Assembly: GCA_942493095.1 (NCBI GenBank)
Contig: OW818675.1
Coordinates: forward strand, 1,950,001 to 1,982,000
Length of the DNA: 32,000 nt
Direction: 5' to 3'
From: Candidatus Electronema halotolerans
GTDB lineage: Bacteria > Desulfobacterota > Desulfobulbia > Desulfobulbales > Desulfobulbaceae
Part shown: piece by piece, positions 12,615-32,000 of the stretch
How the letters are laid out: each line of letters starts with the position of its first letter
Numbering within the stretch: the stretch's first letter is position 1
The notes under the pieces: generated by a model
Database searches by the model: none
Told to the model about the DNA's origin: nothing
The model's input: the letters and a program-made list of their open reading frames with translations, nothing else
Position numbers and translations under genes: made by a program

Positions 12615-12644
12615 GAAGGCAGCAACTTTTTCAAGAGTGCTAAG

Positions 12645-13325: not shown

Positions 13326-13338
13326 AGGTTGCGAAACA

Positions 13339-13836
13339 ATGAAAAAACAAGCCGGTTTCACCCTGATTGAGACGTTGATGGCAATGGCCATCTTCACCAT
13401 TGGCATTCTTTCTCTTTTTGGAATGCAGTCAGCAGCAATCACAAAAAACGTGGTGGCCAACAAAATCACCGCAGGCTCCACATGGGCCGCTGATCAAGTG
13501 GAGCAGCTGATCAGTTTTCCGTATAATCATCCTTTTCTTGCCGATGGCGGTGGAACTAAGAATGGTTGTGGAGGACTTGATGATTGGCCTGATGCAGATG
13601 GTTCTAAAAAAGGAAGTGATTTTTTGTCGTCACCTCCGTACTACAATATCTACTGGAATGTCGCTGATGACTGTACATTGATCGATATTCCAAAAGATAC
13701 TATAGAAAATCCAGATGAAGTGCAGCGGCCAAAGCATGTCAGGATTCTTGTCACCAGAGTCAACGGCAATGGAACTGAAGAATTAACAGCAACTTACAGC
13801 TATATAAAACAGAATGTTATTAAAAAAAAGGATTAA
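13339..13836 (+). CDS. pilV: type IV pilus minor pilin, PilV-like
   Basis: MKKQAG|FTLIETLMAMAIFTIGILSLFGMQ: prepilin cleavage/methylation motif and PilV-type N-terminus. Confidence 0.7.
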   Translation: MKKQAGFTLIETLMAMAIFTIGILSLFGMQSAAITKNVVANKITAGSTWAADQVEQLISFPYNHPFLADGGGTKNGCGGLDDWPDADGSKKGSDFLSSPPYYNIYWNVADDCTLIDIPKDTIENPDEVQRPKHVRILVTRVNGNGTEELTATYSYIKQNVIKKKD

Positions 13837-13849
13837 GAAGGCGACTTTC

Positions 13850-14596: not shown

Positions 14597-17500
14597 ATGA
14601 AAAAAATATGTTGCGCAGCCTTGTTCGGCCTGACCGGAGCAGTTCTGCTTCCGGCGGCTGGCCTTGCCGCCAATGTCTGCGGCCAAGGCGTTGGCATTCC
14701 ACCTTTTCTGTCCTCTGGGGCCAAGCCCAACCTGCTGATGGTGCTGGACAACTCCGGCTCCATGCTGGATGCGGCCTACACTGACACCACGTACTGTAGC
14801 GACGGTTCCACATGCAATACTAATACTGGCAAATGTACTGACGGCAGCGAATGCGGCGCATTCTGCTTTGATGACACCTATGACAAAGACACAACCTATG
14901 CCGGTTATTTCCAGAATGACCAGTGGTATGTATGGACTGAGGGCACCTATAAGCCGTGGGTGAACGGCAAAACTGATTATAAGAAAGGAGACAGGGTTTA
15001 TGTCCAAGGTGTCATTTGGGAGGCTAATAATGACGGCACCTCCAGCGGCACCTCGCCTGATGATGATGCCAATGTGATTTGGAGCAAAGTTTTTTCCATA
15101 CCAAAATGGAAAAATGGCGCAACCTACAGCAAAGATGACATAGTCTGGTCCGGGCCGCAGCTCTACAAGGCATTGAACGCAGGAACCAGCACAGACTCCA
15201 ATCCTGTTGACGGAACCAATCTTGAAGGCAGCAATACAACCAATGTGACATGGGAGGCTGTTGATTCCACATGGCTGAACGGCAAAGAATACGGAGCAGG
15301 TGATATTGTTGCCTATAGAGGTGTGCTGTATGAAACTGCTGCTGGCGGCACATCTAACGGCACCAGCGTTTATGACGACACCGGTGTTATTTGGAATTCT
15401 TTGGATGAGGGTTCTTTTGTCGCTGTCAGCATGAGCGGGGCGCAGACCGCCTGCTCGACAGCTCCAGGAGCCACGAACAAATATACGAACGGCGAACTCT
15501 GCATCAGCCTTAACACAACTCCTGAGCCGGACCAAGTTGCCGCCTTTGCGGCACGGGGCAATCTGCTCAACTGGGCTGCGGCTTCCAAATTTGATGTGGA
15601 GAAGAAAATTCTCACAGGCGGCAAGTACAATTACAAGGAACAGTTCTTGGTCAGCGAGCACCGGGGCTGCTCCGGCTCGCGTCTGATCAAGCAGATTCAG
15701 ATAGCTGGCGCAGGCACTGCGGATACAGCTGACGATAAGTTCCTCAGTCTCGGAGTGCGCAGCTCGCGCTACAGTGATGCCCCGCTTTATGAAGATCGGA
15801 TTGACAGCACAGATGATACTGGACGGCTGGAAGTGCTGGCAATTACGAACAAGGGGTATCAAATGTCTGATAAATGTCAATATGCTATTGACAAGATCGC
15901 GAAAAATGATGGTGATTTGAACGGCACGCAAAATGCGATTGACCAATGCATCACCAGTTTTCCAAGCTCTAACAGCAAGCTGACCGACATGCGGCCTGCG
16001 CTCAATCACAGTCTGCAGGCTTGCTGGCAGGATGACCCAACGACAGATGTTTTTGAAATCAACAACGGAAAATTCAAAAGCCTCGTAGATGCCTGCTGGG
16101 CACTGTACACGGGCGAGGGAAATGGTCAGCTCTCCACGGATGGACGGAAATACGATCCGGCGGAACTTCGTCCGGCGGATGGTGGGCCATATATTTGCTA
16201 TGGTTTGTATGATTCAGGCGTGGATGCAGAAAACAGGACTGGTTACATAGGCCGCGTCTGGAATACGCTTGGAGAGGGCAGCTCCATGACCTGCAATCCT
16301 TGGAAACCAAGCGATGTGCCTTATACCTGTCCTGGCAGTGCAACTACCTGTTATTGGGAATACAATGCTGACAATCAACCTGTAGCTGTCGCAATAACAA
16401 AGGACGGCGAGCCAGCCTATAAGAACGATGGCAATATGGTTTACAAATGCACCTCTTGGCTCAAAGGCGAGTGTAAAGACAATGGCTTGGAGCAGGTGTA
16501 CAAACGTTCTGACGGGGCGTTTTATTATGATGATTCAACCTGCGGCATTTCTGAAGGCAGTACGACAGGCTCTGACTGGGAGAATCCAGATTGGGCTGAC
16601 TCCCCTGCTGATCCGACCAACAACGGCATTGTCCAAGCGATCAAAGATTACTGCGATGCCCTGCGAATACCAGAGGTCATTGATCCTTCTGATGCCGCCG
16701 GAAAAACAAGCTCAACCGGTGGCATGCCGGGACTGCTCAGGGATTCCGAGCTGATGGCTTTTCTGGGCGGCGGCGAACCGCTGGCAACCATGAAAAGCTA
16801 TATCTATCAGGCCAAGCGGCCAGAGGGCGTGGTGCATCGGGTGGCCGGTGATTTACGGCTTGGCGTGATGTCCTTCCGGTACGTGGGCGCAAAAACTGAA
16901 TGCGATCTTGCGGAAACGGATTCCAAGATTGAGAAGTACTGTCCGCTGAACAACATGGATGGTGCCTTGCTCCGCACCCCGCTGGAAGTGGGCGACTATG
17001 TCACAGACAGCGATGACTCAAGCTATGAGAGCGGCAAGCGGCGGCATGTCGATGATCTGGCCGAGGCGATCAACACCACGCGGGGCACTTCATGGACACC
17101 GCTGGCTGAGGCCATGTACGAGGCTATAGGCTATTACACCCAGAACATCAACTTCTGTCTGAATAAGGATGCCAGCACAGGGGAGTGCATGGATTTTCCG
17201 ACAGCGGACAATCCAGCTTATTTCCCCACCGTGACAAAGTCTGATCCGATTCAGTACTGGTGCCAGGACAATCATATCTTGGTGATCACCGAGGGCGAGT
17301 CCACAGCGGATATCAACGAGCAGGTGAAAAAACTCTCCGGGCAGGTGAAAGAGGATGATCCGCATATCCTTTCAAAGAACTGCCCCGGCACCTGCACAAC
17401 ACACGGCCAAGAGAGCGGCTGTCTGTCCGGTCCGTTAGATAAGTTGAAGAGCGGCGATGGGGATGACCCGGACGGTGACGGAGCGGATAACACTGTTTGT

Positions 17501-20500
17501 AATGACGGTCTTTACACCAGCTCTTATTTGGACAACATGACATGGCTGGGGCAGAACGTCCAGCCGCTGTACAAAAACCGCTGCGTTGACGATGCGGCCA
17601 AAGAGACTAAGACCGAAAAACAGGCTATTTTCACACACGTGGTCACCACCGGTACGCTGCTGAATGATGGAGCCGGCGAATGCAACCCGGAAACCCTGAT
17701 GGAGCAGGCCGCAATAAACGGCGGCACTAACGATTATTATCCGGGCGAGAATCCGCAGCAGCTGGAGGACAATCTCTACGCTGTCTTTGATGACATCCTC
17801 AGCCGCTCTTCGGCTGGTTCAGCGGCATCGGTCATCTCCAGCTCCAGAAGTGGTGCCGGCGCAGTCTATCAGGCGGTGTTCTGGCCCAAATTTGATGACG
17901 GAGACCCGGACGGAGACGGCACAAGCAACAAAGTGAGCTGGGTCGGTGATGTTCATTCCCTCTTTGTCAGCTCCAAGGGCCTGATGTATGATGACTGGAA
18001 TCAAAACGGCAAGCTGGATGAGGGCAGCGGTGACAACCGGATTCTCTTCTATTTCAGCAATGCGGCCAACAAAACCAGAGGCTGCTATGACGCGGATGCG
18101 GTTGTCGCCACTGGCCAATGTTCTGAACCAGAGGCGAATGGAGACGACCTCGTTCCTGAATGTTCTGCCAAGAATGGCTGCGGGCCTGATCAAGACTGCA
18201 AATGCGTCGAGCTGCAGGACATCAAATACCTGTGGTCGGCAAACAAGAATCTCGCGGACAGGGATGTTGCCAAGGACCGCAAGCTGTTCACATGGAATGA
18301 CTTTAACAATAACGGCATGGTTGATACGGATGAATGGTTCCAGCTCAATGACTCTGTTGACTGGACCGCGTTGGACAATGAGGCTGCCAAAGCCAATCCT
18401 CCCCGTGGGCCAGTGAGCAATGATTTCCTCAAAGAGGACGATATTGAGGATTTTGTCGCCTACGATGCTAGCAGCGACATGAAGAGCAACGCTCTCAAAA
18501 CCTTGACGCTCTGGCTGCAAGGGGTTGATGTGCTGCCTGATCCGACGACCGGGGATGTGACAGTGACTGACACGGACAACAACACGTGGAATGCCAAAGA
18601 GCTGCGGTCAAGAAAGTTCACCTTCCAGACCACAGCGACGGTTGGCGGCACAGAAGTTTCAGGGTATGCCGACAAAACATGGCGGCTGGGCGACATCATC
18701 CATTCCACACCGATGGTTGTGGCCAAGCCTGCTGAACTCTATCATTACATCTACCGTGATCCGACCTACAACAGCTTTGCAACGAAATGGAACGACCGCC
18801 GCAACATGATTTATTTCGGCGGCAATGACGGCATGCTTCATGCGGTGAACGGCGGCTTCTTTTACAACAATCAGTTCTGCTGCACTCCGTTTGACAGCGA
18901 CGGCACTTGCCCGTCTGAGCCGGAAAACGGCGTTTGCGATGGTCATCCTGATCTTGGCGAAGAACTGTGGGCCTACATTCCCTACAATCTTCAGCCTCAT
19001 CTGAAATGTCTGGCTGACAAGTTCTATGCCCACAAGTCCTATGTTGATCTGAAGCCGCGCATTTTTGATGTGCAGATATTTAAAGAAGATGCGACGCATC
19101 CCGGCGGCTGGGGCACCATACTGGTCGGCGGCATGTACTTTGGTGGTACCCCGGTGGCAGCTGTGGATTTGAATGACACCGCGAATGACAACCGGAAATT
19201 CATCTCCGCCTACTTTGTCCTTGACATCACTGATCCTGGAAGTGATCCTGTGCTGCTCGGTGAGATGACGCAGACTCTCAAGAAGGACAGCGACGGAAAC
19301 CTGATCCAAGACGGCAGCGGAAACTACGTGGATGAATATGCGGACATGCAGTACACCGCCTCCTCGCCGTCCATGATCATCATGCGTAAGGGCGGAGCGA
19401 ATGATGTCAAATCACAATGGTATCTGACGCTTGGCAGCGGTCCGGCAGATATGGACGGGGCCAACAACAGCGGCGCGCAGGGCAAGCTGGCGGTCATCCC
19501 GCTCGACTGGATGGAAGGCGGAGTGACAAGCTGGACCAAAGGTGTGCCGACCAATGTCAGCGATGTCTCTAAAAAACCGTTCCGCATTCCTAATGAAAAA
19601 CCTAAGGCCGGTTCCCAAGGCGGCACCTTCCCTGTTCCTTGGCCAAACAACGACAGCACCAGCGCCAGCTCCATCTCTGATATTATCTCTATCGATTACA
19701 ATATCGATCTGTCCTCAGCAGGCGACGACCTCGGTGCGCGGTACTGCACAGATGCCATCTATTTCGGCACTGTGGATGGCACTGACTTTGAGAAATATCC
19801 GTCCAGCTATCTTGACGGCGCAGCAGACCAGTTCTACTGGAACGGAGGCGGCAGAGTCTTCCGGTTAGTCACCAAGATAATGACCAGCAAGGAGGACACC
19901 AACAACAACAACCAGTTGGATGAGGGCGAAGACACCAATAACAACGGTGTCTTGGATACCTATGTTGAAGCCGCATCGCTCCCGTCAGAGTGGGCGGGCA
20001 AATGGGATGACGGAAATCCGCTGCGGCTGCTGGCTGATGTTGGAATGCCGGTTGTCGGCGCGCAGTCTGTCGGCTACGACAACTGGAATTACTGGGTCTA
20101 TGCGGGCACAGGGCGCTTCTTTGGCGAGAAGGACAAGACGGATGACGGCTGGTGTCTCAGTGCTGACTGCTCGGACAAAGGGGACAGAAGCAAAGCTGCC
20201 ATCTTTGGCCTCAAAGAGCCGCTGATGGATAAAATATCCGGCTTTGATAACTGGACTGCCGCTCACACACCGTTAAGCTCGTCCTTCACCTGTGCGGACA
20301 GGGTGATGACATGGGCAACAATCAATTGGGATATCAACGTTGACAGCAACGATGAACTGCCCAAAAATGTCTCTTCCTCTGATCCTCCAGCTCCTTCAAA
20401 CAACAAAGCCGGGGAGCGCGGTCTGATGCGGACAGACAATATTCTCGTGGATAACACGGGGGCTTTGTACTGTTATTACTGCGCGACAGACCTCGCCGAC

Positions 20501-21145
20501 CCATCTCTGTACCAATGCGGCAAAACAGATGGATTGACTGGCGCGACTCTGGATGATGGAGATTGCTTTCCTGGCGGCACAAACGGGCTGATCTGGGATG
20601 CGACTAACGGGCGTTACGCCTTTGACAATCTCCAAAGGTACATTGCCGGAGAGGCTTTCAATCCAACAGGAAATGGGCAAGGGTGCATTGAGAATACCGG
20701 AACTGGCTTGGACGGCTGGTATCACGCCTTCCATGATCCCCGCGAACGGAATCTCGGTGCTTCGGCCCTGCTGGGCGGTCTGCTGACCTTCACCACCTAT
20801 CAGCCTTATAACGACAAGTGCCAAGCTGAGGGCCAGAGCTATCTGTACGGCATTCACTTCCAGACCGGCACAGCTTGGACAGAGACGGTCTTCGGCACCT
20901 TTGACGAGAATTTGAGCAACGGAAGTGACAGCGCCAGCAAGAAAACTGTTGTTAAAGACAAGCTGAGTCTGGGCCGGGGTCTGTCCACCACCCCCAGCAT
21001 GCATGTCGGCAGCGACAGCGACAATGATGCCAAGGCCTTCATTCAGACCAGCACCGGGGAGATCATTGAGGTCGAGCAGAAAAACCTGCCTATCACAGCC
21101 GGAAGAAGCGGCAGGCAGAACTGGAATGACCGCCTGAGCAAATAA
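14597..21145 (+). CDS. pilY1: giant PilY1-like pilus tip adhesin (signal peptide, expanded vWA region, C-terminal PilY1/PilC beta-propeller)
   Basis: 2182 aa. AGGAGGG RBS. Signal peptide MKKICCAALFGLTGAVLLPAAGLAA. vWA MIDAS elements are VLDNSGSM (aa 49-56), TPLAEAMYEAIGYY and ILVITEGESTAD. PilY1 propeller hallmarks from about aa 1362 are WRLGDIIHSTPMVV, IYFGGNDGMLHAVNG, ELWAYIP, YFVLDITDP, AIYFGT, WVYAGTGRF, and GWYHAF...ERNLGASALLGGLLTFTTYQP...C..EGQSYLYGI. Confidence 0.9.
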   Translation: MKKICCAALFGLTGAVLLPAAGLAANVCGQGVGIPPFLSSGAKPNLLMVLDNSGSMLDAAYTDTTYCSDGSTCNTNTGKCTDGSECGAFCFDDTYDKDTTYAGYFQNDQWYVWTEGTYKPWVNGKTDYKKGDRVYVQGVIWEANNDGTSSGTSPDDDANVIWSKVFSIPKWKNGATYSKDDIVWSGPQLYKALNAGTSTDSNPVDGTNLEGSNTTNVTWEAVDSTWLNGKEYGAGDIVAYRGVLYETAAGGTSNGTSVYDDTGVIWNSLDEGSFVAVSMSGAQTACSTAPGATNKYTNGELCISLNTTPEPDQVAAFAARGNLLNWAAASKFDVEKKILTGGKYNYKEQFLVSEHRGCSGSRLIKQIQIAGAGTADTADDKFLSLGVRSSRYSDAPLYEDRIDSTDDTGRLEVLAITNKGYQMSDKCQYAIDKIAKNDGDLNGTQNAIDQCITSFPSSNSKLTDMRPALNHSLQACWQDDPTTDVFEINNGKFKSLVDACWALYTGEGNGQLSTDGRKYDPAELRPADGGPYICYGLYDSGVDAENRTGYIGRVWNTLGEGSSMTCNPWKPSDVPYTCPGSATTCYWEYNADNQPVAVAITKDGEPAYKNDGNMVYKCTSWLKGECKDNGLEQVYKRSDGAFYYDDSTCGISEGSTTGSDWENPDWADSPADPTNNGIVQAIKDYCDALRIPEVIDPSDAAGKTSSTGGMPGLLRDSELMAFLGGGEPLATMKSYIYQAKRPEGVVHRVAGDLRLGVMSFRYVGAKTECDLAETDSKIEKYCPLNNMDGALLRTPLEVGDYVTDSDDSSYESGKRRHVDDLAEAINTTRGTSWTPLAEAMYEAIGYYTQNINFCLNKDASTGECMDFPTADNPAYFPTVTKSDPIQYWCQDNHILVITEGESTADINEQVKKLSGQVKEDDPHILSKNCPGTCTTHGQESGCLSGPLDKLKSGDGDDPDGDGADNTVCNDGLYTSSYLDNMTWLGQNVQPLYKNRCVDDAAKETKTEKQAIFTHVVTTGTLLNDGAGECNPETLMEQAAINGGTNDYYPGENPQQLEDNLYAVFDDILSRSSAGSAASVISSSRSGAGAVYQAVFWPKFDDGDPDGDGTSNKVSWVGDVHSLFVSSKGLMYDDWNQNGKLDEGSGDNRILFYFSNAANKTRGCYDADAVVATGQCSEPEANGDDLVPECSAKNGCGPDQDCKCVELQDIKYLWSANKNLADRDVAKDRKLFTWNDFNNNGMVDTDEWFQLNDSVDWTALDNEAAKANPPRGPVSNDFLKEDDIEDFVAYDASSDMKSNALKTLTLWLQGVDVLPDPTTGDVTVTDTDNNTWNAKELRSRKFTFQTTATVGGTEVSGYADKTWRLGDIIHSTPMVVAKPAELYHYIYRDPTYNSFATKWNDRRNMIYFGGNDGMLHAVNGGFFYNNQFCCTPFDSDGTCPSEPENGVCDGHPDLGEELWAYIPYNLQPHLKCLADKFYAHKSYVDLKPRIFDVQIFKEDATHPGGWGTILVGGMYFGGTPVAAVDLNDTANDNRKFISAYFVLDITDPGSDPVLLGEMTQTLKKDSDGNLIQDGSGNYVDEYADMQYTASSPSMIIMRKGGANDVKSQWYLTLGSGPADMDGANNSGAQGKLAVIPLDWMEGGVTSWTKGVPTNVSDVSKKPFRIPNEKPKAGSQGGTFPVPWPNNDSTSASSISDIISIDYNIDLSSAGDDLGARYCTDAIYFGTVDGTDFEKYPSSYLDGAADQFYWNGGGRVFRLVTKIMTSKEDTNNNNQLDEGEDTNNNGVLDTYVEAASLPSEWAGKWDDGNPLRLLADVGMPVVGAQSVGYDNWNYWVYAGTGRFFGEKDKTDDGWCLSADCSDKGDRSKAAIFGLKEPLMDKISGFDNWTAAHTPLSSSFTCADRVMTWATINWDINVDSNDELPKNVSSSDPPAPSNNKAGERGLMRTDNILVDNTGALYCYYCATDLADPSLYQCGKTDGLTGATLDDGDCFPGGTNGLIWDATNGRYAFDNLQRYIAGEAFNPTGNGQGCIENTGTGLDGWYHAFHDPRERNLGASALLGGLLTFTTYQPYNDKCQAEGQSYLYGIHFQTGTAWTETVFGTFDENLSNGSDSASKKTVVKDKLSLGRGLSTTPSMHVGSDSDNDAKAFIQTSTGEIIEVEQKNLPITAGRSGRQNWNDRLSK

Positions 21146-22679: not shown

Positions 22680-22701
22680 AACTGGTTGGTCAGAGTCGTG
22701 T

Positions 22702-23919
22702 TCAGCCGCTGGCGCGCAGCAGCACAATGGCGTGGGCGCTGATGCCTTCGCCCCGACCAGTATAGCCCATTCTCTCCGTGGTTGTCGCCTTGATATTGAG
22801 CTGCTCCGCTGCGCAGACGGTGCTGAGATTGCTCTGCATGGCCGGAATATGCGGGGCCAGCTTGGGCTGCTGGCAGATGACGGTGATGTCGGCATTGATG
22901 ATGCGCATCTGGCGCGCCCTGACCAAGTCCATGACCCGCGCCAGCAGGATAAGGCTGTCCGCGCCCCGGTACTGCTCATCTGTGTCCGGGAAATGACGGC
23001 CTATGTCTCCCTCGCCCAGTGCGCCAAGGATGGCATCCATCAGGGCATGAACCAAGACATCCGCATCTGAATGCCCTTGCAGGCCAAGATGATAGGGAAT
23101 GTCCACCCCGCCGAGAATCAGCTTGCGTCCAGCAACCAAGCGGTGCGCGTCAAAGCCTTGGCCAATGCGCATGATGCGCTCCTTTTCTTGCAGCAGCCCG
23201 GCAGCGATGCGCAGATCATCGGGCCGGGTAATCTTGATGTTTTCCTCACTGCCCATGACCACAGCCACCGGAATGCCCGCATGTTCAAGCAGAGATGCCT
23301 CGTCCGTGCCGAGAAAGCCGTCCACCTCAACCTGCTTGCATGCCTGCTCCAGCAGCTCCCGCCTCATGCCCTGCGGAGTCTGGGCCTGCCAGAGCGAACT
23401 GCGGTCAACAGTGCGAGTTATGCAATTATTCGCAACTTCCTTCAGGGTGTCTTTGACCGGCACCGCCGCAATCACGGCCCCGTGCTCTTCCATGCCAGAT
23501 AAACAGCGGTCAATGACTGCAGCACTGACCAAGGGCCGGGCTGCGTCATGCACTAAAATGCGCGCAACTGCAGCGGGCAAAGCCTGCAAGCCATTGCGCA
23601 CTGAGGCTTGGCGCGTCTCGCCGCCTGCGGTAAAAAGGAGCTTGCTCCGCTGGGCTGGGCTGAGATAAGGACGGAGCAGGTCTGCCCCAAACTGAAGCTG
23701 ATCCGGCGGCAGGACAGCGACAACTGCGCTGACCGCAGGATGATCAAGAAAGACCAGCAGGGTTCGGGCCAGCACCGGCATTCCGGCCAGCTCCAGAAAC
23801 TGCTTGGGCTGGTCTGTGTGCATGCGGCGGCCAAAACCGGCAGCAGGGATGATGATGCCGAGAATGCCGGGCTGAGATGGAATATTGCAAAACCAGCGAA
23901 GTTCCTTGCCTGTGGCCAT
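22702..23919 (-). CDS. ispDF: bifunctional 2-C-methyl-D-erythritol 4-phosphate cytidylyltransferase / MEcPP synthase
   Basis: N-terminal IspD motif IIPAAGFGRRM...KQFLEL. C-terminal IspF motifs RIGQGFDAHRL, GHSDADVLVHALMDAILGA and ITVICQQPKL. Confidence 0.93.
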   Translation of the reverse strand: MATGKELRWFCNIPSQPGILGIIIPAAGFGRRMHTDQPKQFLELAGMPVLARTLLVFLDHPAVSAVVAVLPPDQLQFGADLLRPYLSPAQRSKLLFTAGGETRQASVRNGLQALPAAVARILVHDAARPLVSAAVIDRCLSGMEEHGAVIAAVPVKDTLKEVANNCITRTVDRSSLWQAQTPQGMRRELLEQACKQVEVDGFLGTDEASLLEHAGIPVAVVMGSEENIKITRPDDLRIAAGLLQEKERIMRIGQGFDAHRLVAGRKLILGGVDIPYHLGLQGHSDADVLVHALMDAILGALGEGDIGRHFPDTDEQYRGADSLILLARVMDLVRARQMRIINADITVICQQPKLAPHIPAMQSNLSTVCAAEQLNIKATTTERMGYTGRGEGISAHAIVLLRASG

Positions 23920-25625
23920 CAGAAATCAAACCTCCAAATTCCCGCAGCAATATCCGCCATCCGCTTCTGCCGGGATTCAACCTTCTGCTCATCCCAGCTG
24001 TCGTAATGCTCGGCCACAGCCTGCGTCATCTTGAATGCGCTGCGCTGATACACGGCCCGCTTCGTTTGATAGTCCTTATTGCCAAGTTCCCGGTTGCGGC
24101 TGGTTTCAAGCGGAGTCATGTTGCCAAGCCGGTATTTCATCCGCTCCTGTTTCGCTTCCTCAATGACAGACCATGCCTCTGACGGATGCTCAGGAAGGAT
24201 GTGCTCAATGCTGTAGGTCGCGCTTTCAACGTCAAACTCCTGCTGATACTTCTGCCGTTCAATTTCAAAAAGAATATAGCGCACGATCTTCTTGTTCCGG
24301 CTGAACGAAGTTCGCAGTTCCTTTTCCGCAAAGGCTGTTTTGAACAGGCTGTCGTCAGGATAGACTGCTCCCAAGGCAGCAAGCAACGCTGCCGTGCTCG
24401 CATACTTTTTGTCGGAGACATTGCGGGCAATCTCGTTGTACAGCCGCTCTTGATCATGTGTCGGGAGATTGCAGATCACGTTGTAACGGAAAGATGCGAT
24501 TGTGACCGCCCGCATGATGCGGGTGAACACCGCCCGTTCCGCTTCATAATACCGCTCATAGCAGGCCATGAGCATGGCTAACGGCTGCCGCACTTTGAAC
24601 ATCATCAATTGCCGAAGATACTGCCGCTCATCAGCGCTCCAAGCAGCATCCTGCGGATCACGGAGAGCCGCATACACTGCGGCGGCCTGATCTAAATCCC
24701 GCAGCAACTGAAATGCTGTCTCCCGTGAGTTGATCTGTTTTCGGATAGTCTTGAACAGTTCAGACTTCCTGACCAATCTGTTGCGGCTGTTCCAAAAAAT
24801 CCGCAGAAACTCAGGAAAGCTCTCGCTGCCCAACAGGTCAACGATTCCCTCCCAGCGTTCTTCAAGCGAGGTCATCTCGACTTCATGCTCGGTCTCTCTG
24901 CTGATAATGGAAAACAGATAATTTTTCAGCAGATCAGTTGCCGACAGCCGCACTCCCCGCGCATTGAGCGTTTCAAAGACCGTGAAGGCGTTCAGCTCGT
25001 CAGTCACCGAGATGACCGTGAAAAAGAGCTTGTCCGCCAGCATCTCGACAAACTCGGCCAGCTTCCTGCCGCTCGCCTCTGTGGTTCCGCAGTGCTTTTT
25101 GATGCGCTCCTTGAACCAGATGAACGCCTTTCTCAGCTTATGCTCAGAGGCGTTCAAGCGCCGCTGGGGTATTTTTCCCAGCGGAACCAGATAGGTCTGA
25201 TAAAAGCGGTTGTTGTGCCGGTTCAACTCCAGCTTGGAATGCGACACCAAGCTCACCGGATCAAGATAACCGATGTAGCTGTTCCGCAATTGCTCCGCCC
25301 GTCTGCGGTTGTTGTCCGTATCTGCACCTGATGCAGACATATCCTCAAGCAGACTCAGGCTGGCCAGCACCAGCACGCTGAGAGTCGTCAGCCGCTGCTG
25401 GCCGTCAATGATGGCAAACCGTTTGCTGTCCGAGGACTGCAGCACCAGATATCCCATGTAATGGGCTGGCTCGCCGTCTTCCTCAAGGAGACCGAGCATG
25501 TCCAGCCAGAGGTCATCCCACTCCTCCTCTGTCCACGAGTAGTCGCGCTGAAAAGGCGGCACCCGGTAGCTGAGACCATTGCCCAGCAGCTGGCGGAAGG
25601 TGTTGTTGGCGGTGTTGAAATTCAT
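23919..25625 (-). CDS. DUF262 + DUF1524 protein (GmrSD-family, type IV restriction-like nuclease)
   Basis: 568 aa. N-terminal DUF262 signature YRVPPFQRDYSWTEEEW and DGQQRLTT. C-terminal His-Me/HNH-like DUF1524 signature IEHILPEHP...LGNMTPLETSRNRELGNKDY. Its stop shares one nucleotide with the ispDF ATG (TGATG). Confidence 0.8.
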   Translation of the reverse strand: MNFNTANNTFRQLLGNGLSYRVPPFQRDYSWTEEEWDDLWLDMLGLLEEDGEPAHYMGYLVLQSSDSKRFAIIDGQQRLTTLSVLVLASLSLLEDMSASGADTDNNRRRAEQLRNSYIGYLDPVSLVSHSKLELNRHNNRFYQTYLVPLGKIPQRRLNASEHKLRKAFIWFKERIKKHCGTTEASGRKLAEFVEMLADKLFFTVISVTDELNAFTVFETLNARGVRLSATDLLKNYLFSIISRETEHEVEMTSLEERWEGIVDLLGSESFPEFLRIFWNSRNRLVRKSELFKTIRKQINSRETAFQLLRDLDQAAAVYAALRDPQDAAWSADERQYLRQLMMFKVRQPLAMLMACYERYYEAERAVFTRIMRAVTIASFRYNVICNLPTHDQERLYNEIARNVSDKKYASTAALLAALGAVYPDDSLFKTAFAEKELRTSFSRNKKIVRYILFEIERQKYQQEFDVESATYSIEHILPEHPSEAWSVIEEAKQERMKYRLGNMTPLETSRNRELGNKDYQTKRAVYQRSAFKMTQAVAEHYDSWDEQKVESRQKRMADIAAGIWRFDF

Positions 25626-25643: not shown

Positions 25644-26234
25644 CTACAGCCGCAGCACCACATGCACCACATCCGGGTCTTCGCCGCTCGTGCTGATATT
25701 GAAGCCGAGCTTGGCAGCCAGGGTGAGCATGTCATTATTAGTAGAGAGCACATCGCCTTCCATGAGCTGCAAACCATGACTGCGGGCCGCAGCAAGGAGT
25801 TGCTGCATGAGCAGATGGGCAATGCCTTGCCGCTGCCATTCATCGGCCACGACAATGGCGAATTCGCAGCTCCGGCCATCCGGGTTGATGCTGTAGCGGG
25901 CCAGCATCTGCGGACTGAGTTCGTCAATCGCCTGCATGAAGCGGAAATACTTGCTCTGCTCAGAGAGATTGCGGACAAATTCCTGCTCCATGTCCGCATC
26001 CTCTGGCCGGATGGGCCGGATGACCATGTCCATGCCATTGGGCAGCTGCCGCTTGGTGACAAAATGGGCTGGATACGGATAAATAGCCATGTGGCTGTAG
26101 CGGTCGGAAGTCATCGCGTGAAAATCAACCACGATCCGCGCATCCACGGCCATTGCCCCGTGCTCATCGACAATCAGGGGGTTGATGTCCAGCTCCTTGA
26201 CCAAGGGCAGCTCGCAGGCGATTTCCGAGACCCG
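25644..26234 (-). repeat. direct repeat copy A of the pat 3' end
   Basis: Manual alignment to 28759-29439: about 17 mismatches in 25644-25842, 1 mismatch in 25843-26234, plus a 90-nt gap. Confidence 0.9.
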
Positions 26235-26249
26235 CAGAGACAGTGTCAA
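25644..26249 (-). pseudogene. displaced 3' fragment of the pat (acyl-CoA synthetase-like/GNAT acetyltransferase) gene, with an internal 90-nt deletion
   Basis: 591 nt (25644-26234) align to 28759-29439 of the intact gene. There is only a TTG 'start', no RBS, and the homology begins mid-domain. 30 codons of the GNAT core (FTQIDYSREMGLISVVHGAEDKEKQIGVAR) are missing. Confidence 0.8.
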
Positions 26250-26260
26250 GATGCAAAATA

Positions 26261-26956
26261 TTACAATACTCTGTAGAGAAATACTTCATGGGGGACAGAA
26301 CAGCCGTTCAGCAGTTTTCTATGTGTATATTTTTGACGATCAAGGATCGTGAACTGTTCCTGCTTATCCATCCATTGCAAAATTTCTTGTCTATTCTTAT
26401 GAAAAGGATCATCAACTAAATTAAAAGCAATATAGGCGGGTTCTTTCAGTAAATCTGTATAAAGCTGATAGTCTTTCAGGGCTAAATGGTTTGCTGCTCC
26501 GCAGATTATTAAGCAGTTGATATTTTTTTTCTTCAGTTCTGACAGGTCATCTTCTGGAAACAAGAAGCATCTGTTATAAATACCGGGCGTATCGCGATTC
26601 AAGGCTTTCAGTGCTTCCGCTGTAATTTCAACACCGGCAAGGTACTGTACAGCGAGGGAAGGACTGTCGATTATTTTCTTTCCCATAAGTCCGCTGCCAC
26701 AGGCAATGTCTGCTATTCTCAGAGGCAGTCTTTTGGGGATAAAGGAGATCAGAATTTTTTCAATGGCATCATAAACCCCACATTTCAAAAAATCTACAAT
26801 CAGTTGACGATAAAGATCAGGATAACTGTAGAGGAACGGGTAATCCCAAATATGAAATTCCCTGCTCGTCCCATCTGAAAACTGCACTTCAAGCAGTTCG
26901 TCCCCCTGCTTTCCTGTTCTGATGCTGCTGAACATATACATACGATTATTGCACAT
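26261..26956 (-). CDS. class I SAM-dependent methyltransferase (substrate unknown)
   Basis: 231 aa. Motif I region RIADIACGSGLMGKKI. AT-rich. Overlaps the upstream PLP-enzyme gene by 11 nt. Confidence 0.65.
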   Translation of the reverse strand: MCNNRMYMFSSIRTGKQGDELLEVQFSDGTSREFHIWDYPFLYSYPDLYRQLIVDFLKCGVYDAIEKILISFIPKRLPLRIADIACGSGLMGKKIIDSPSLAVQYLAGVEITAEALKALNRDTPGIYNRCFLFPEDDLSELKKKNINCLIICGAANHLALKDYQLYTDLLKEPAYIAFNLVDDPFHKNRQEILQWMDKQEQFTILDRQKYTHRKLLNGCSVPHEVFLYRVL

Positions 26957-27908
26957 CTATCTTCTGCTCCTGTAGAAAATCAGGATTATATATTTTTGAC
27001 AAATACTTGATACCGTGATCGTAGAGGATGGTGATAATAACTCCTTTATCTATCTGTTTGCTCAATTTTTGACAGGCAGCAAGATTCAATCCACTGCTGC
27101 CGCCGACAAAGAATCCTTCTGTTTTTGCAAGCTGGTGACAGCAATTGACTGCCTCCTTATCAGAAATATCAATCACATCATCAATTAAAGAGAAATCAGT
27201 ACAGCTTGTTGGCTTCATTTTTCCCGCTCCTTCAATAAGGTATTTCTTTTTTTTGGAGATTTTAACAGACTGTTTTCTGTATTTTCGATAATGTCCGGAA
27301 AGGCATGAATGCAGAGGATCGGCAAGTATCACCTTAATGTCTCTATTTTTCTCCTTTAGATATCGTGCTGTTCCAGCAATGCAGCCAAAGGTTGAAGAAG
27401 TCATGACTAGAAAGTTCACCTTTCCACAACTTTGCTTCCATATTTCAGGACCAAGAGAGGAATAGTAGGCGTACGGGTTGTCAGGATTGTCATACTGATT
27501 AATATCAAAATAGCCATTTCTTTTTGCAAGTTCCATTGCATATTCTATATAGTCATCTGTCACAATAAGACGGGCGTTAAAAGCTCGAATATGATCCTGC
27601 TTTTCGCGACTGCATTTTTCAGAGGTGACAATAACCACCTTGTATCCTTTCACTGCTCCCAGCATCGCGAGACTCAACCCGGTATTCCCGCTTGAAGCGC
27701 ATATAACTGTGTCCCCTGGATGAAGTTTTTTTTCACATTCAGCTCGCAGTAAGATATATTTAATCATACGATCTTTCATGCTCAGGCCGGGATTCATAAA
27801 TTCACACTTTGCATAGAGCGAAACAGACCTGTCCAGTATTGAACTCAAATCAACCAACGGAGTGTTTCCGATGAGATCAACAAGTTTTTTTGGAGCCGGG
27901 ACAATCAT
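26946..27908 (-). CDS. PLP-dependent cysteine synthase/cystathionine beta-synthase family enzyme (CysK/CysM/SbnA-like)
   Basis: 320 aa. IGNTPLVDL, PLP-lysine motif NPGLSMKDR, asparagine-loop SSGNTGLSLA, C-terminal GGSSG. The usual glycine-rich phosphate loop (GxGTGGT) reads TSSTFGCIAG. Confidence 0.85.
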   Translation of the reverse strand: MIVPAPKKLVDLIGNTPLVDLSSILDRSVSLYAKCEFMNPGLSMKDRMIKYILLRAECEKKLHPGDTVICASSGNTGLSLAMLGAVKGYKVVIVTSEKCSREKQDHIRAFNARLIVTDDYIEYAMELAKRNGYFDINQYDNPDNPYAYYSSLGPEIWKQSCGKVNFLVMTSSTFGCIAGTARYLKEKNRDIKVILADPLHSCLSGHYRKYRKQSVKISKKKKYLIEGAGKMKPTSCTDFSLIDDVIDISDKEAVNCCHQLAKTEGFFVGGSSGLNLAACQKLSKQIDKGVIITILYDHGIKYLSKIYNPDFLQEQKIDVQ

Positions 27909-28639
27909 CCTGCATTCCTCCTGAACTCTATAACGTAAATTTTTTTATTCCATTCACCGTTCTTTTTGCTGATTTCACGCCGTTGCCGCTCGTCTTCAGA
28001 CATTTTTCCGACAGCAGGATAAAAAATTTGCCGGAGAGGCACTATAGCTGCGCATTTTTTTACCACAGTCAGGCCACGGTCTCCAGCATCTTTCAGAATA
28101 TTATCAGGCAGCAATACTGATGATATCCCCAGATAGGCGCGGGTTTGCCTATGCAGGCATGAGGCCAGCCATTCTGTAAACTGATCAATCAAATGTCGTC
28201 CGTCAGCTCCTCCGTCACGAAAAATACGTTCCCGACCATCTCTGTATGTATCAATGGGAACCAAGTCCGTCGGTAGCTGCGGCGGATTGAAAAAAATCGC
28301 ATCTATCTGATATTGAGACAGTTCAATGTCTTGGAAAGGTGTATTGAGCAGCCTGTATGCAGACTCCGGGATACGATGACGCTGTAGATTTCGCTGCGTT
28401 AAACGAATAGCATCCTTCTGGAGATCGTTAAAATAAACAAAGCCGCTCCCGTTGAGCAGCGCGTACAGACCGACAATACCGCTTCCGCAGCCGATATCCA
28501 GCAGACATCTCGGGCAATCAAAAGACAGGGCTTCGCACATCAGTCTGCTGAATGGGGTTTTGTCTGGGATGCCTTCATTACCGTACAGATGAACAGCATC
28601 AAAACATGCACCCCTAACGCCTTTTTTTTCTTTGTTCAT
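27905..28639 (-). CDS. SAM-dependent methyltransferase of the HemK/'MTS' small-domain type with an NPPQ motif IV
   Basis: 244 aa. Motif I LLDIGCGSGIVG, acidic loop YFNDL, motif IV IFFNPPQLP (a variant of (D/N)PP(Y/F)), then RDGGADGRHLIDQF. ATGA overlap with the downstream PLP-enzyme gene. Confidence 0.7.
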   Translation of the reverse strand: MNKEKKGVRGACFDAVHLYGNEGIPDKTPFSRLMCEALSFDCPRCLLDIGCGSGIVGLYALLNGSGFVYFNDLQKDAIRLTQRNLQRHRIPESAYRLLNTPFQDIELSQYQIDAIFFNPPQLPTDLVPIDTYRDGRERIFRDGGADGRHLIDQFTEWLASCLHRQTRAYLGISSVLLPDNILKDAGDRGLTVVKKCAAIVPLRQIFYPAVGKMSEDERQRREISKKNGEWNKKIYVIEFRRNAG

Positions 28640-28694
28640 GATAACAGGCTTTCAATATGCTTGCAGGTAAAAAAACAGAAAACACAAGTCATCT

Positions 28695-28728
28695 CGTTCC
28701 AACGCTCAAGCATGTCAGCGTTGGAACG
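28695..28728 (-). terminator. 12-bp perfect hairpin downstream of pat (putative terminator)
   Basis: cgttccaacgct (28695-28706) and agcgttggaacg (28717-28728) are exact reverse complements, 30 nt after the pat stop. A U-rich tract follows, but the U7 run is about 20 nt away, so this is non-canonical. Confidence 0.4.
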
Positions 28729-28758
28729 CATGAACCATGCCACCAAATTGCGGCAGCT

Positions 28759-29439
28759 TTAGAGCCGCAGCACCACATGGACCACATCCGGGTCTTCATC
28801 GCTGTTGCTGATGTTGAAGCCGAGTTTGGCCGCCAAGGTGAGCATGTCATTATTAGTAGAGAGCACATCGCCTTCCATGAGCCGCAAACCATGACTGCGG
28901 GCTGCGGCAAGGAGCTGCTGCATGAGCAGATGGGCAATGCCCTGCCGCTGCCATTCGTCGGCCACGACAATGGCGAATTCGCAGCTCCGGCCATCCGGGT
29001 TGATGCTGTAGCGGGCCACGCCGATCTGTTTTTCCTTGTCCTCCGCACCATGCACCACGGAAATCAGCCCCATCTCCCGGCTGTAGTCGATCTGGGTGAA
29101 GCGGGCCAGCATCTGCGGACTGAGTTCGTCAATCGCCTGCATGAAGCGGAAATACTTGCTCTGCTCAGAGAGATTGCGGACAAATTCCTGCTCCATGTCC
29201 GCATCCTCTGGCCGGATGGGCCGGATGACCATGTCCATGCCATTGGGCAGCTGCCGCTTGGTGACAAAATGGGCTGGATATGGATAAATAGCCATGTGGC
29301 TGTAGCGGTCGGAAGTCATCGCGTGAAAATCAACCACGATCCGCGCATCCACGGCCATTGCCCCGTGCTCATCGACAATCAGGGGGTTGATGTCCAGCTC
29401 CTTGACCAAGGGCAGCTCGCAGGCGATTTCCGAGACCCG
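28759..29439 (-). repeat. direct repeat copy B of the pat 3' end (inside the intact gene)
   Basis: See copy A. The homology ends abruptly at 29439/26234 and at the stop codons (TAA versus TAG). Confidence 0.9.
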
Positions 29440-31437
29440 GAGCAGGACATGCTCCAAGGCTTCCATGTCAACCTTGGGCATGTGCCGGAACGCGCCCAGC
29501 AGCTTGAAAACTCTGGTGCTCTGAATCAGGTCTTGGACCAAGCGGCGATTGAGCGGCGGCAGGGTCACGGCCCGGTCGCCCATCACCTCGACCGAAATGC
29601 CGCCCGCGCCAAAGGTGATCACCGGGCCAAAGACCGGGTCTGTGACCAAGCCGACCAGCAGCTCCCGGCCATTGGGCCGCTGAAGCATGGGCTGAATGGT
29701 CACGCCGTCAATGCGGGCTTCGGGCCGGTTCCGGCGCACCTCGGCCAGCATCTCGTTGTAGGCGCTGCGGGCTGCCTGGGCATTGCTGATCCCAAGCCGC
29801 ACGCCGCCCGCATCTGACTTGTGGGTGATGTCGGGCGAATTGATTTTCAGGGCCACGGGAAAGCCGATGGTCTCAGCCTGGACCAAGGCCTCGTTGGGCG
29901 AGCGGACTATGCTGGCCGGAGTGGTCGGAATATGGAAAGCATGCAGCACCGCCTTGGACTCAGCCTCACTGAGCACCTTGCGGCCCTCTGCCAGCACGCT
30001 CTCGATGATCAGGCGCGCCCCTTCCACATCCGGTGCCCTGTCCCGCGAGATCGGCCCCGGCGTTTCCAACAGCAGCTTCTGGTTCCGGCCATGATTGACC
30101 AAGTAGGAAAAGGCATCCACCGCTGTTTCCGGGGTGTTGAAGGTCGGGATGTTGGCATCGCGGAAAATGCGGCGGCCTTCGCCAACCTGAATTTCCCCCA
30201 TCCAGCAGGTCAGGAGCGGCTTTTTGCCCGTGTTCAGCTCGACCAGTGACTGGGCCACGCCTGCCGGGTCGGTCATGGCCTGCGGAGTGAGAATGACCAG
30301 CAGACCATCGACATTGGGATCATCCATGCAGATGGACACAGCTTGGGCATAGCGTTCCGGGGTCGCATCACCAATAATGTCAACCGGATTGCTGTGCGAC
30401 CACGTTGCAGGCAGGACTTCGTTCAGCCGCTTCATGGTCTCTTTGGACAGCTCGGCCAAAGGTAGGCCCAGATCAGCCAGCCGGTCTGTGGCCATCACCC
30501 CTGGGCCGCCGCCATTGGTGACAATTGCCAGCCGGTCGCCATCCGCCTTAGTCGGAAAGGTCAGGATGGCGGCGGCAGAGAAGAGATTGGCGATGCGCAG
30601 GCCGCGCACCACCCCTGCCCGCCGCAAGGCGCTGTCAAACACGTCATCCGCCCCGACCAGTGCGCCGGTGTGCGACATGGCCGCCTTGGAGCCGCTGGCG
30701 TGCCGTCCCACTTTCAAGGCAATGACCGGCTTGAAGCGGGCCGCTGCCCGCAGGCCGCTCATAAAGGACAAGGCGTTGTGAATGCCTTCGATATACAGCA
30801 AGATGCTCTTGGTCTTGGGGTCATTGACTAAGTAATCGAGCACATCGCCAAAGTCGATGTCGGCGGAAATGCCGGTCGAAACCACAGCGGAAAAGCCGAT
30901 CTTGTTGGCAGCAGCCCAGTCAAGAATGGCCGTGCAGAGCGCGCCGGACTGCGAAACAAGGGCAATATTGCCCGGCGCGGCCACGCCCTTGTTGAAGGTG
31001 CAGTTCAGACCGGTGGCAGGCCGCATGATGCCGAGGCAGTTTGGCCCGACAAAGCGCAGGCCGTGGCGGCGGGCGTTCTCCAAGACCGCCTGCTCCAGTT
31101 TCAGGCCCTGCTGCCCGACCTCGCGGAAACCTGCTGAGATGATCACTGCCGAGCGGATGCCGTAGCTGCCGCAGGCTTCGATAATGGCAGGCACGGTTGC
31201 CGCCGGAGTGGTGATCACGGCCAGATCAACCGGCTGGCCAAGGCTCTTCAGGTCAGGATAGGCTTTGCGGCCTTGCACCTCCTCGTGCTTGGGGTTGACC
31301 GGAAAGACCTCGCCCTTGAAGCCGCCTTCAATCATGTTTTTGAAGACCAGATTGCCCACCGCCCCTTCGCGGTCGCTGGCACCGAAGACCGCGACTGAGC
31401 GCGGTTCAAACAGCTTGTTGAGATAGTGCTTGCCCAT
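28759..31437 (-). CDS. pat: Pat-type bifunctional NDP-forming acyl-CoA synthetase-like / GNAT protein acetyltransferase
   Basis: 892 aa. N-terminal CoA-binding/succinyl-CoA-synthetase-like region (PRSVAVFGASDREGAVGN...VNPK...VGPNCLG), ATP-grasp middle region, C-terminal GNAT (IVVADEWQRQGIAHLLM). AAGGAA RBS. Confidence 0.88.
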   Translation of the reverse strand: MGKHYLNKLFEPRSVAVFGASDREGAVGNLVFKNMIEGGFKGEVFPVNPKHEEVQGRKAYPDLKSLGQPVDLAVITTPAATVPAIIEACGSYGIRSAVIISAGFREVGQQGLKLEQAVLENARRHGLRFVGPNCLGIMRPATGLNCTFNKGVAAPGNIALVSQSGALCTAILDWAAANKIGFSAVVSTGISADIDFGDVLDYLVNDPKTKSILLYIEGIHNALSFMSGLRAAARFKPVIALKVGRHASGSKAAMSHTGALVGADDVFDSALRRAGVVRGLRIANLFSAAAILTFPTKADGDRLAIVTNGGGPGVMATDRLADLGLPLAELSKETMKRLNEVLPATWSHSNPVDIIGDATPERYAQAVSICMDDPNVDGLLVILTPQAMTDPAGVAQSLVELNTGKKPLLTCWMGEIQVGEGRRIFRDANIPTFNTPETAVDAFSYLVNHGRNQKLLLETPGPISRDRAPDVEGARLIIESVLAEGRKVLSEAESKAVLHAFHIPTTPASIVRSPNEALVQAETIGFPVALKINSPDITHKSDAGGVRLGISNAQAARSAYNEMLAEVRRNRPEARIDGVTIQPMLQRPNGRELLVGLVTDPVFGPVITFGAGGISVEVMGDRAVTLPPLNRRLVQDLIQSTRVFKLLGAFRHMPKVDMEALEHVLLRVSEIACELPLVKELDINPLIVDEHGAMAVDARIVVDFHAMTSDRYSHMAIYPYPAHFVTKRQLPNGMDMVIRPIRPEDADMEQEFVRNLSEQSKYFRFMQAIDELSPQMLARFTQIDYSREMGLISVVHGAEDKEKQIGVARYSINPDGRSCEFAIVVADEWQRQGIAHLLMQQLLAAARSHGLRLMEGDVLSTNNDMLTLAAKLGFNISNSDEDPDVVHVVLRL

Positions 31438-31474
31438 GAGAAGTTCCTTATAGCGGTTTCGTATTGAACAGATA

Positions 31475-32000
31475 TCAAACCCAGCAATGACGGAAAAACG
31501 ATTTGATTGATTTTGACTTAACCGTTTTCAGAGATATATCATAAGCTTCCATCAGCTCACGCTCTGTTCTCGGCTTCAATTTTCTTATAGTGTTTTTCAT
31601 TACTGACCAGCAGTATTCAATAGGGTTCAGTTCAGGACGATAAGGAGGGAGGAAAATGATCTTCGCTCCTGTACTTCTGATCAAAGCGAGAGCTTCTTTG
31701 TTTTTATGAGGACTGGCATTGTCAAGAACGACTGTCTTGCTGCTGTCAAGATATTTCAAAAGATAATTTTTTATATAGAAATAAAAGACATCTCCTGTCA
31801 TGGTGCCTTTAAATTTCATGCACTTCAATATTTTTCCAAACTTTACAGCTCCTATCATGCTTATTCTTTTCCCTTTACCTGAAGGTCTTTTTGAAAAAGC
31901 TCTTGTTCCTTTTCTTGATCTTGCAAATTTTCTCGACATGTTCAAACAGCATCCTGTCTCATCAATAAAGATGAAATTCTTTTTGTCAGCCTCGAGCAGG
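31475..32000 (-). mobile_element. IS630/Tc1-mariner family DDE transposase (C-terminal catalytic part; runs off the right edge)
   Basis: The frame stays open to the window edge: LLEADKKNFIFIDETGCCLNMSRKF...VVLDNASPHKN...IFLPPYRPELNPIEYCWSVMK. These are the DDE_3 motifs (DE..., D..., PPYSPELNPIE-like). AT-rich relative to pat. Confidence 0.85.

Follow-up and report, generated by a model that had tools for sequence, protein, structure and literature searches.

Certain integrative elements, among them e14 and phage 21 in icd and the islands at tRNA and tmRNA genes, carry a surrogate 3' end of the gene that they target. A displaced gene end can also be left by homology-facilitated illegitimate recombination (HFIR). 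As set out in one abstract (PMC3240628) and in a review (PMC5361080), HFIR has been described in natural transformation of Acinetobacter, Streptococcus pneumoniae and Pseudomonas stutzeri and in Escherichia coli conjugation, and has been proposed as the origin of the displaced 3' ends at type VI secretion system (T6SS) and Rhs loci. Such orphan 3' ends retain a conserved coding stretch and, according to the same review, can recombine with the main gene (PMC5361080). A comparable arrangement is present at the pat gene of Candidatus Electronema halotolerans, in a 32,000-nt stretch of contig OW818675.1 (assembly GCA_942493095.1, positions 1,950,001 to 1,982,000) that is called the window throughout. 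Here a complete pat gene is followed by a 2.5-kb low-GC block, by a pat remnant that starts at codon 666 and, at the ancestral spacing, by a GmrSD restriction gene.

An earlier note on this DNA (the original prediction) had taken the arrangement as the footprint of an element that brought its own 3' end of pat, restored the gene and displaced the native end. What the window holds is an ordinary recombination scar with a rare operon as its cargo, and no new kind of mobile element. The scar was probably formed by combined homologous and illegitimate exchange between sister lineages, in the manner of HFIR, followed by gene conversion and then by a deletion.

Two pat alleles around a foreign block

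A repeat search of the window finds the pat 3' end (28759-29442) a second time, in the same orientation, at 25644-26237, with the low-GC block between the copies. The features concerned are the following.

28759 to 31437, minus strand: intact pat, 892 aa, the "H-type" allele, uniform from start to stop, with CoA-binding, succinyl-CoA-ligase-like, ATP-grasp_5 and GNAT domains (Pfam, NCBIfam)
28759 to 29442, minus strand: repeat copy 1, formed by the final 684 nt of the complete gene (repeat search and alignment)
26238 to 28758, minus strand: foreign block (the cassette) of 2,521 nt, with a hairpin, three genes and a 23-nt tail, bounded by junctions J1 and J2
25644 to 26237, minus strand: repeat copy 2 (the fragment), a truncated pat 3' end with an open but defective reading frame, equal to Pat residues 666-892 with residues 777-806 (in the GNAT core) missing

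The repeat search returns the duplication as two blocks, 25892-26191 against 29097-29396 (99% identity, offset 3205) and 25645-25903 against 28760-29018 (94% identity, offset 3115). The offsets are unequal, and the copies measure 591 and 681 nt, because an in-frame stretch of 90 nt is missing from the downstream copy. Between the copies there are 17 mismatches in the final 199 nt, TAA versus TAG among them, and a single one (26076/29281) in the other ~390 aligned nt; one further mismatch lies at the outermost edge of the repeat (26235/29440). This clustering is beyond chance (Fisher p = 7e-8). The original prediction had given the duplication as 28759-29439 and 25644-26234, with about 17 differences in the stop-proximal ~200 nt and one in ~390 nt. 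The repeat search finds the same duplication, and the recount (17/199 and 1/~390) agrees. That homology stops abruptly also holds, although not exactly at 26234/29439: judged against outgroups, its limit is 3 nt further out, at 26237/29442.

Two boundaries are non-homologous. J1 (28758/28759) coincides with the pat stop codon, relative to the cassette-less contig L101, and J2 (26237/26238) joins 23 nt of cassette tail to pat codon 666. A search for flanking inverted and direct repeats detected neither terminal inverted repeats nor a target-site duplication at J1 or J2, and scans of 21-32 kb gave no tRNA and no Rfam match (E up to 1) near the cassette.

L101, a JGI contig from a very close strain, contains a pat gene that is 99.44% identical in nucleotides to the intact pat of the window. 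This similarity begins 14 nt before the pat start, covers the whole gene and breaks off exactly after the final base of the stop codon; an unrelated convergent fn3 gene lies downstream in L101. Since homology ends at the stop codon, the insert has its left boundary at 28758/28759, outside pat. Over the last 260 nt, L101 has one mismatch with the intact copy and 18 with the fragment. Thus, the intact pat is a single H-type allele and not a fusion of a native 5' part with an imported 3' part, and the proposal that a surrogate end had restored the gene is not supported. Sliding-window comparison of the intact pat with other Electronema species reveals no mosaic, but these outgroups (76-91%) are too distant to be informative.

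The fragment has a different source. In another assembly, a full-length Pat (P0149, ~96% aa identity) has 26 differences from the intact Pat of the window in the first 665 residues, yet agrees in protein with the tail of the fragment, including the diagnostic residues Q, T and G; the fragment tail is therefore the allele of a sister lineage, the "S-type". As many as 13 of the 17 nucleotide differences fall at third codon positions (p = 3e-4), and only three codons alter the amino acid. Outgroup polarisation splits the 17 differences about evenly between the two branches, with mostly synonymous changes on the branch of the fragment. This bias toward synonymous and third-position changes on both branches shows that both alleles diverged as parts of working genes before they came to lie together, which excludes an in-situ duplication that later decayed. 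Polarisation left undecided which copy is native, and the close alleles L101 and P0149 decided it. Both types occur as full-length natural genes, the H-type in the window's intact pat, L101 and P0145 and the S-type in P0149; the P0148 contig is likewise counted among the S-type genomes. A separate comparison of the two divergent tails, which the original prediction had proposed, has therefore given each its own match: the intact tail is that of the cassette-less L101 allele, and the fragment tail is, in protein, that of P0149.

Conversion and deletion within the fragment

The fragment is divided into an S-type tail and an H-type head, with the missing 90 nt near their border.

25644 to 25842, minus strand: unconverted stop-proximal block, S-type, with 17 nucleotide differences from intact pat; its protein equals full-length Pat P0149
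25843 to 26234, minus strand: homogenised block, H-type, in which 0 of 111 aa differ from intact pat and 6 of 111 from P0149
25895 to 25903, minus strand: point at which 90 nt were lost in frame, a deletion bounded by two 9-nt TGGCCCGCT repeats

The history of the head can be read from L091 (ERZ27283454), a contig of another strain from another sample, which has the same J2 junction. Its cassette part differs from the window at 8 of 950 positions (99.2% identity), whereas the first 116 nt of its pat fragment also contain eight mismatches (p = 1e-4 for the contrast), and this head translates exactly to the P0149 sequence (diagnostic PLIKELD...VVDY). Because the L091 head is S-type at the same junction, the fragment was originally S-type throughout; because the window head is H-type, the near-identical block is a gene-conversion tract and no crossover core. 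Of the two origins first considered for this block, crossover or conversion, the L091 contrast leaves conversion.

The tract ends 3 nt before the edge of homology, where 26235 retains the S-type, ancestral G. It spans the deletion site, with no differences in the 61 nt beyond (P ~0.004 at the divergence rate of the tail), and the deletion therefore postdates the conversion. Loss of the DNA between the TGGCCCGCT repeats takes out Pat residues 777-806, in the GNAT core, and replication slippage between these 9-nt repeats would explain it. At 26076 the fragment has G, the state of L101; thus, the mismatch at this position is a later mutation in the intact copy, after conversion. A search with the fragment protein gave no second carrier of the truncated copy, and an exact 31-mer search for the J2 junction in JGI metagenomes gave no match.

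Independent support and the ancestral locus

Both cassette junctions and the cassette itself recur in the short-read contigs L081 and L103, which stop after 30 nt of the identical block (= k-1), the short-read contig L082 shows the stretch from the fragment tail through GmrSD and ispDF to G6PD, and L091 spans the cassette/pat junction. These independent contigs exclude an assembly artefact. The paper that names Ca. Electronema halotolerans reports circular genomes of cable bacteria from Nanopore and Illumina data (PMC10030654), and the present record may be one of them.

The gene that follows the fragment identifies its position.

23919 to 25625, minus strand: GmrSD-family (DUF262/DUF1524, HEC-06) type IV restriction gene, which starts 19 nt after the fragment stop

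In Electronema sp. PJ, an intact pat is followed after 27 nt by the GmrSD orthologue (75% aa identity), and the fragment, 19 nt before GmrSD, is therefore in the ancestral position of the pat 3' end. The synteny comparison that the original prediction called for thus yields both a cassette-less pat, in L101, and a pat directly before the GmrSD (DUF262) gene, in Electronema sp. PJ, and its claim that the native 3' end was displaced is upheld. None of the 80 pat loci compared contains the cassette or a second pat 3' end.

Formation of the scar

In the sequence of events considered probable here, DNA of one sister lineage would have entered the other. One end would have recombined by homology, leaving no visible junction, and the other would have been joined illegitimately at 26237/26238; cassette-bearing H-type DNA would thereby have been set beside the 3' remnant of an S-type pat-GmrSD unit. 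This could have happened in either direction: an H-type pat-hairpin-cassette segment may have replaced the first 665 codons of pat at an S-type pat-GmrSD locus, or an S-type pat 3' end with GmrSD may have been joined behind the cassette in an H-type genome. RecA-type conversion from the resident intact pat would later have overwritten the first ~390 nt of the remnant, sparing the first 3 nt. Slippage between the 9-nt repeats would then have deleted 90 nt, and the point mutation at 29281 in the intact copy would have come later. No dedicated recombinase would be needed, and the cassette would be passive cargo. Two features of the window are those looked for in HFIR: at J2, foreign and resident DNA meet abruptly, with no target-site duplication or terminal repeats, and the combination of H- and S-type pat shows related lineages that share the anchor.

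Several points weigh against this history. The homologous crossover is invisible, and the HFIR mechanism would be read from one abrupt junction. The position of J1 at the stop codon calls for one more event, unless in the donor pat was already followed by the cassette. The L091 contig stops exactly k = 119 nt into the pat homology, which implies that the sample contains a second identical S-type copy, either in that genome or in another strain present with it; the organism of L091 could hold S-type copies at both positions, a situation that would need a more complex history. Finally, the function of the cassette is a prediction.

Alternative explanations

Insertion-duplication of the Campbell type, in which a circle that bore the terminal ~684 nt of pat together with hairpin and cassette entered by a single homologous crossover inside pat, is unlikely. 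It would produce the observed topology (intact gene, insert, 5'-truncated copy), and the fragment, a chimera of H-type head and S-type tail, is like a reciprocal product of such a crossover. However, the reciprocal chimera is absent, the intact copy being H-type throughout, and the S-type head of L091 at the same junction means that the chimera arose later, so that extra replacement steps would be required.

It is also unlikely that a resident S-type pat was split at codon 665/666 by the insertion of a segment consisting of IS630, pat, hairpin and cassette, with the 5' half of that gene now beyond the window. Synteny with L101 does break on both sides, 14 nt upstream of pat (at IS630) and at the stop codon, and the far side lies past the window end at 32000. 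However, the best 120 matches to a query with Pat residues 1-665 were all Pats of full length (844-908 aa) and included no E. halotolerans protein of ~665 aa, though the proteins of this genome are in the database. In addition, no insertion sequence (IS) copy or inverted repeat is present at the right end of the block, and a simple IS630 insertion upstream of pat accounts for the left break.

A site-specific integrative element that brought a surrogate pat 3' end and has since lost its integrase, with the identical block as att or crossover site, is very improbable. Direct repeats of a gene 3' end around foreign AT-rich DNA, a truncated copy in the ancestral place before GmrSD and cassette-less pat loci in relatives are all what such an element would leave. 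Yet the block is fully packed with three genes and has no recombinase or remnant of one, there is no tRNA and there are no terminal repeats, and the intact gene is no chimera but ends in 200 nt of the cassette-less L101 allele. The identical block, ~390 nt long, is not shared by L091 (8/116 differ) despite the same junction, which leaves no short att core. At 12 other loci the operon is not linked to pat, so that insertion at the same target does not recur; no integrase accompanies it there, and the three loci scanned for repeats show no flanking duplication. The original prediction is thus sustained in the foreign origin of the cassette and in recombination at pat, but is not supported in making an element the agent.

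An in-situ tandem duplication followed by decay, or an artefact of assembly or polishing, would be suggested by the direct repeats, which lie 3.1-3.2 kb from each other in a genome derived from a metagenome, and is the least probable of all, since the two tails are two different alleles, each found as a full-length natural gene, purifying selection is seen on both branches, and the junctions are present in independent short-read contigs and in a contig of another sample. In-situ duplication, assembly artefact and integrase-borne island are accordingly rejected on the grounds given above.

The cassette and its three genes

28695 to 28728, minus strand: perfect 12-bp hairpin, 30 nt past the pat stop, with a U-run ~15 nt further on
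27905 to 28639, minus strand: MT1, a HemK/MTS-like class I S-adenosylmethionine (SAM) methyltransferase of 244 aa with an NPPQ motif (Pfam MTS, 3e-8)
26946 to 27908, minus strand: pyridoxal phosphate (PLP) enzyme of the CysK/CBS/SbnA fold, 320 aa (PALP, PF00291, 3e-71), with an SMKDR lysine motif and an SSGNTG Asn loop
26261 to 26956, minus strand: MT2, a novel class I SAM methyltransferase of 231 aa with no Pfam family

The block was originally described as AT-rich and as holding only a hairpin and three overlapping genes, with no integrase, transposase or recombinase, and each part of this description is borne out. Its GC content is 0.42, against 0.57-0.64 for pat and the flanks. The three genes are co-directional on the minus strand and overlap by 4 and 11 nt, the intergenic space of the whole block amounting to 119 + 23 nt. 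Scans with Pfam, NCBIfam and PADLOC find no integrase or recombinase, or remnant of one, in the three genes. The hairpin is missing from all relatives. Because the U-run is ~15 nt away, it is no canonical intrinsic terminator; a promoter and terminator scan performed no better than on shuffled sequence and did not score the hairpin as a terminator.

MT1 matches HemK-related NCBIfam models, all below their cut-offs, and its PDB matches are HemK and N6AMT1. It also matches PADLOC mad2 of the MADS system (3e-16), in the methyltransferase domain only, and no further MADS component is present. The cassette is therefore not read as a MADS defence system, the mad2 match being confined to that domain.

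The PDB matches of the PLP enzyme are cysteine synthases and CBS, with 9k2p as the closest entry. It falls under every NCBIfam equivalog cut-off; its best score is 268 bits against the 387 required for CysK (PRK10717), and the others in the cysteine synthase, CBS, SbnA and cysteate synthase set are 247/600, 244/510 and 204/350 bits. Its placement in the cysteine synthase/CBS/SbnA/cysteate synthase group is one of fold level only.

MT2 belongs to a rare family, with 15 clusters among 5.8 billion proteins. Its AlphaFold model (pLDDT 91) is matched by Foldseek to the generic class I folds of BioC, NRMT2, CbiT and spermidine synthase (TM ~0.5), and an MT2 profile run against PDB sequences gives only marginal, generic methyltransferase matches. 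These matches to a predicted model give no basis for naming a substrate.

The combination of a PLP beta-replacement enzyme with a SAM methyltransferase on either side suggests a methylated amino-acid product, and a role in salt adaptation is possible. The function proposed for the cassette, with low confidence, is that it makes a methylated amino-acid derivative through PLP-dependent beta-replacement and two SAM-dependent methylations.

The operon in other genomes

The operon is present at 12 other loci, as the complete trio in nine, as MT1-MT2 alone in one and as a partial operon on two fragmentary contigs. The order MT1-PLP-MT2 is conserved in Ca. Electrothrix scaldis (L083), in short-read contigs (72-75% nt identity) and in low-GC metagenome contigs. 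The copies in Ca. Electrothrix scaldis and the short-read contigs are the closest and those in the low-GC metagenome contigs more distant. The nearest relatives of the operon are in marine Electrothrix-like bacteria. In every host the GC content of the cassette is 0.37-0.45.

None of the 12 loci, which lie in unrelated contexts, is linked to pat; no flanking duplication was found at three of the longer loci, which were scanned for repeats, and the gene tables of the other operon loci contain no integrase domain. Since the operon occurs elsewhere without pat and without gene-end duplications, nothing marks a self-mobile element that targets pat. The cassette is a functional module spread by horizontal transfer, with no sign of mobility of its own.

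At one locus (L086:9236-10684) MT1 and MT2 are present and the PLP gene is missing; at another (L085:73-3202) the PLP gene has a large internal deletion, and the adjoining gene has a faint match to an ISL3 transposase. The two methyltransferases appear, from such gene content, to be the conserved core pair of the operon.

A protein of ~740 aa, absent from the window, adjoins the trio in four distinct contexts (L083/L084, L085, L092/L093/L094), for example at L083:10764-13025, L085:4511-6748 and L092:4077-6314. It is a membrane protein with a signal peptide, a long coiled coil, transmembrane segments and a conserved C-terminal domain. It has no Pfam match at E up to 0.1. A single-sequence search gave MscS chains only (E 0.04-0.8), and a three-sequence profile was no stronger; given such weak E-values, a link to the mechanosensitive channel MscS is unproven.

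The trio of Ca. Electrothrix scaldis also adjoins a phosphonate-type cluster (L083:13179-19935) with a phosphoenolpyruvate (PEP) mutase, a thiamine pyrophosphate (TPP) enzyme, an aminotransferase, two methyltransferases and a MetE-like gene. The position of the TPP enzyme suggests a phosphonopyruvate decarboxylase, and a gene for a fused homocysteine S-methyltransferase/methylenetetrahydrofolate reductase (MTHFR) lies upstream.

The variable flank of pat

The DNA directly after the pat stop codon is different in every Electronema genome. Depending on the genome, the genes found there encode GmrSD, an AAA_15/AAA_21 ATPase, a PNP-NB-ARC-TPR protein, a histidine kinase, Dus, a multihaem cytochrome or eCIS/MAM/fn3-domain proteins. 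The region is hypervariable, and several of its genes are from defence-associated families. The first genes past pat at L008:13485-14981, L018:12705-15461 and L002:12710-14416 include an AAA_15/AAA_21 ATPase, a PNP_UDP-NB-ARC-TPR (STAND-like) gene and GmrSD, and the downstream flank of pat looks like a small hotspot of defence-type genes.

In the window, GmrSD and ispDF share one base, at the stop of the former and the start of the latter (23919), and G6PD follows ispDF after ~22 nt (22680-22702). The restriction gene thus adjoins two housekeeping genes with almost no spacing, an adjacency seen in no other pat locus examined.

Among the Pats compared (P0145 and P0147-P0150), P0147-P0149 differ at 24-26 of the first 665 residues, yet their last ~40 residues are markedly unlike. 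At least four allele types of the Pat C-terminus can be distinguished (window 28759-28900; P0145, P0147-P0150). Such divergent C-termini fit recurrent recombination at the 3' end of the gene, beside the variable locus.

A more far-reaching idea is that the pat 3' end is a recurrent, recombinase-free landing pad, at which lineages of cable bacteria swap downstream DNA with the gene end as homology arm, and that the present cargo could make a methylated amino-acid-type solute that aids the salt tolerance of the only saltwater Electronema species. This would explain both the differing DNA after the pat stop and the mosaic, hypervariable Pat C-termini, but it is regarded as a long shot.

On the other side of pat lies an insertion sequence.

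31452 to 32000, minus strand: IS630-family (DDE_3) copy that abuts pat and is cut by the window end, with its DDE_3 open reading frame at 31475-31945

An IS630 on the far side of pat had been part of the original prediction, and the DDE_3 reading frame confirms it. The copy abuts pat, homology to L101 ends 14 nt upstream of the pat start codon, and IS630 probably separates pat from its native promoter region.

Other features of the window

Elsewhere in the window, an AT-rich cluster of minor-pilin genes (GC 0.42-0.45) occupies 11425-14530 and 14597-21145. It includes a tandem pair of GspH/FimU-like paralogues (11428-11973 and 12048-12614), which share 87% identity over 234 nt, PilW-like and PilX-like genes, and one more gene in which only the prepilin N-methylation motif is recognised. 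Next comes a 2,182-aa protein; CBM_5_12 is its sole Pfam match, and its position suggests a PilY1-type pilus tip protein. Upstream of the pilin cluster is a sigma-54 response regulator (9827-11218).

Comparison with known systems

The locus is a clean natural case of foreign genes that were fixed by a homology anchor and one illegitimate joint, without the machinery of a mobile element, and it illustrates that later gene conversion can partly wipe out the evidence of such events. A duplicated gene end around AT-rich cargo does not by itself prove an integrative element; the deciding comparison is that of each repeat tail with the alleles of cassette-less relatives. For cable bacteria, the downstream flank of pat is marked as a variable, defence-rich locus, and a very rare three-enzyme operon is singled out; that it contributes to salt tolerance is speculation.

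No characterised counterpart of this rare operon is known, and elsewhere it is often found beside the ~740-aa membrane protein. Its enzymes share fold-level membership with CysK, CysM, CBS and SbnA and with class I SAM methyltransferases, as shown by the PALP match and by the lysine, GxGxG SAM and NPPQ motifs, but the PLP enzyme scores below the equivalog cut-offs, and MT2 has no Pfam family.

The conversion tract has the properties of ectopic gene conversion between direct repeats: its ~390 nt equal the resident functional copy, it ends 3 nt before the edge of the repeat, and the sister strain is divergent over the same stretch. In this respect, the locus is nothing unusual.

With e14, phage 21 and the tRNA islands, the locus shares a duplicated gene 3' end that brackets foreign DNA and a target gene that is intact. 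It differs from these elements in lacking an integrase and a short identical core and in that its intact gene is not chimeric, and its repeat of ~0.6 kb is a mosaic produced by later conversion.

The orphan 3' ends at Rhs, CdiA and T6SS effector loci (PMC5361080) are alike in having a complete gene, new cargo and a 5'-truncated older 3' end. However, pat is a protein acetyltransferase/acyl-CoA synthetase-like gene and no polymorphic toxin, there is one fragment and no array, the next gene is a GmrSD restriction gene instead of an immunity gene, and the cargo is a biosynthetic-looking operon. The resemblance to polymorphic-toxin orphan arrays is therefore one of architecture only.

HFIR cases are also alike, in that foreign DNA lies beside a homologous anchor with one seamless and one abrupt junction, no target duplication, inverted repeats or recombinase are present, and the partners are related lineages. 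Here, unlike in those cases, the scar alone is available and the crossover at the anchor is not visible. A further difference is that the illegitimate end lies inside the homologous gene itself, so that two alleles of pat have come to stand side by side and mimic a duplication.

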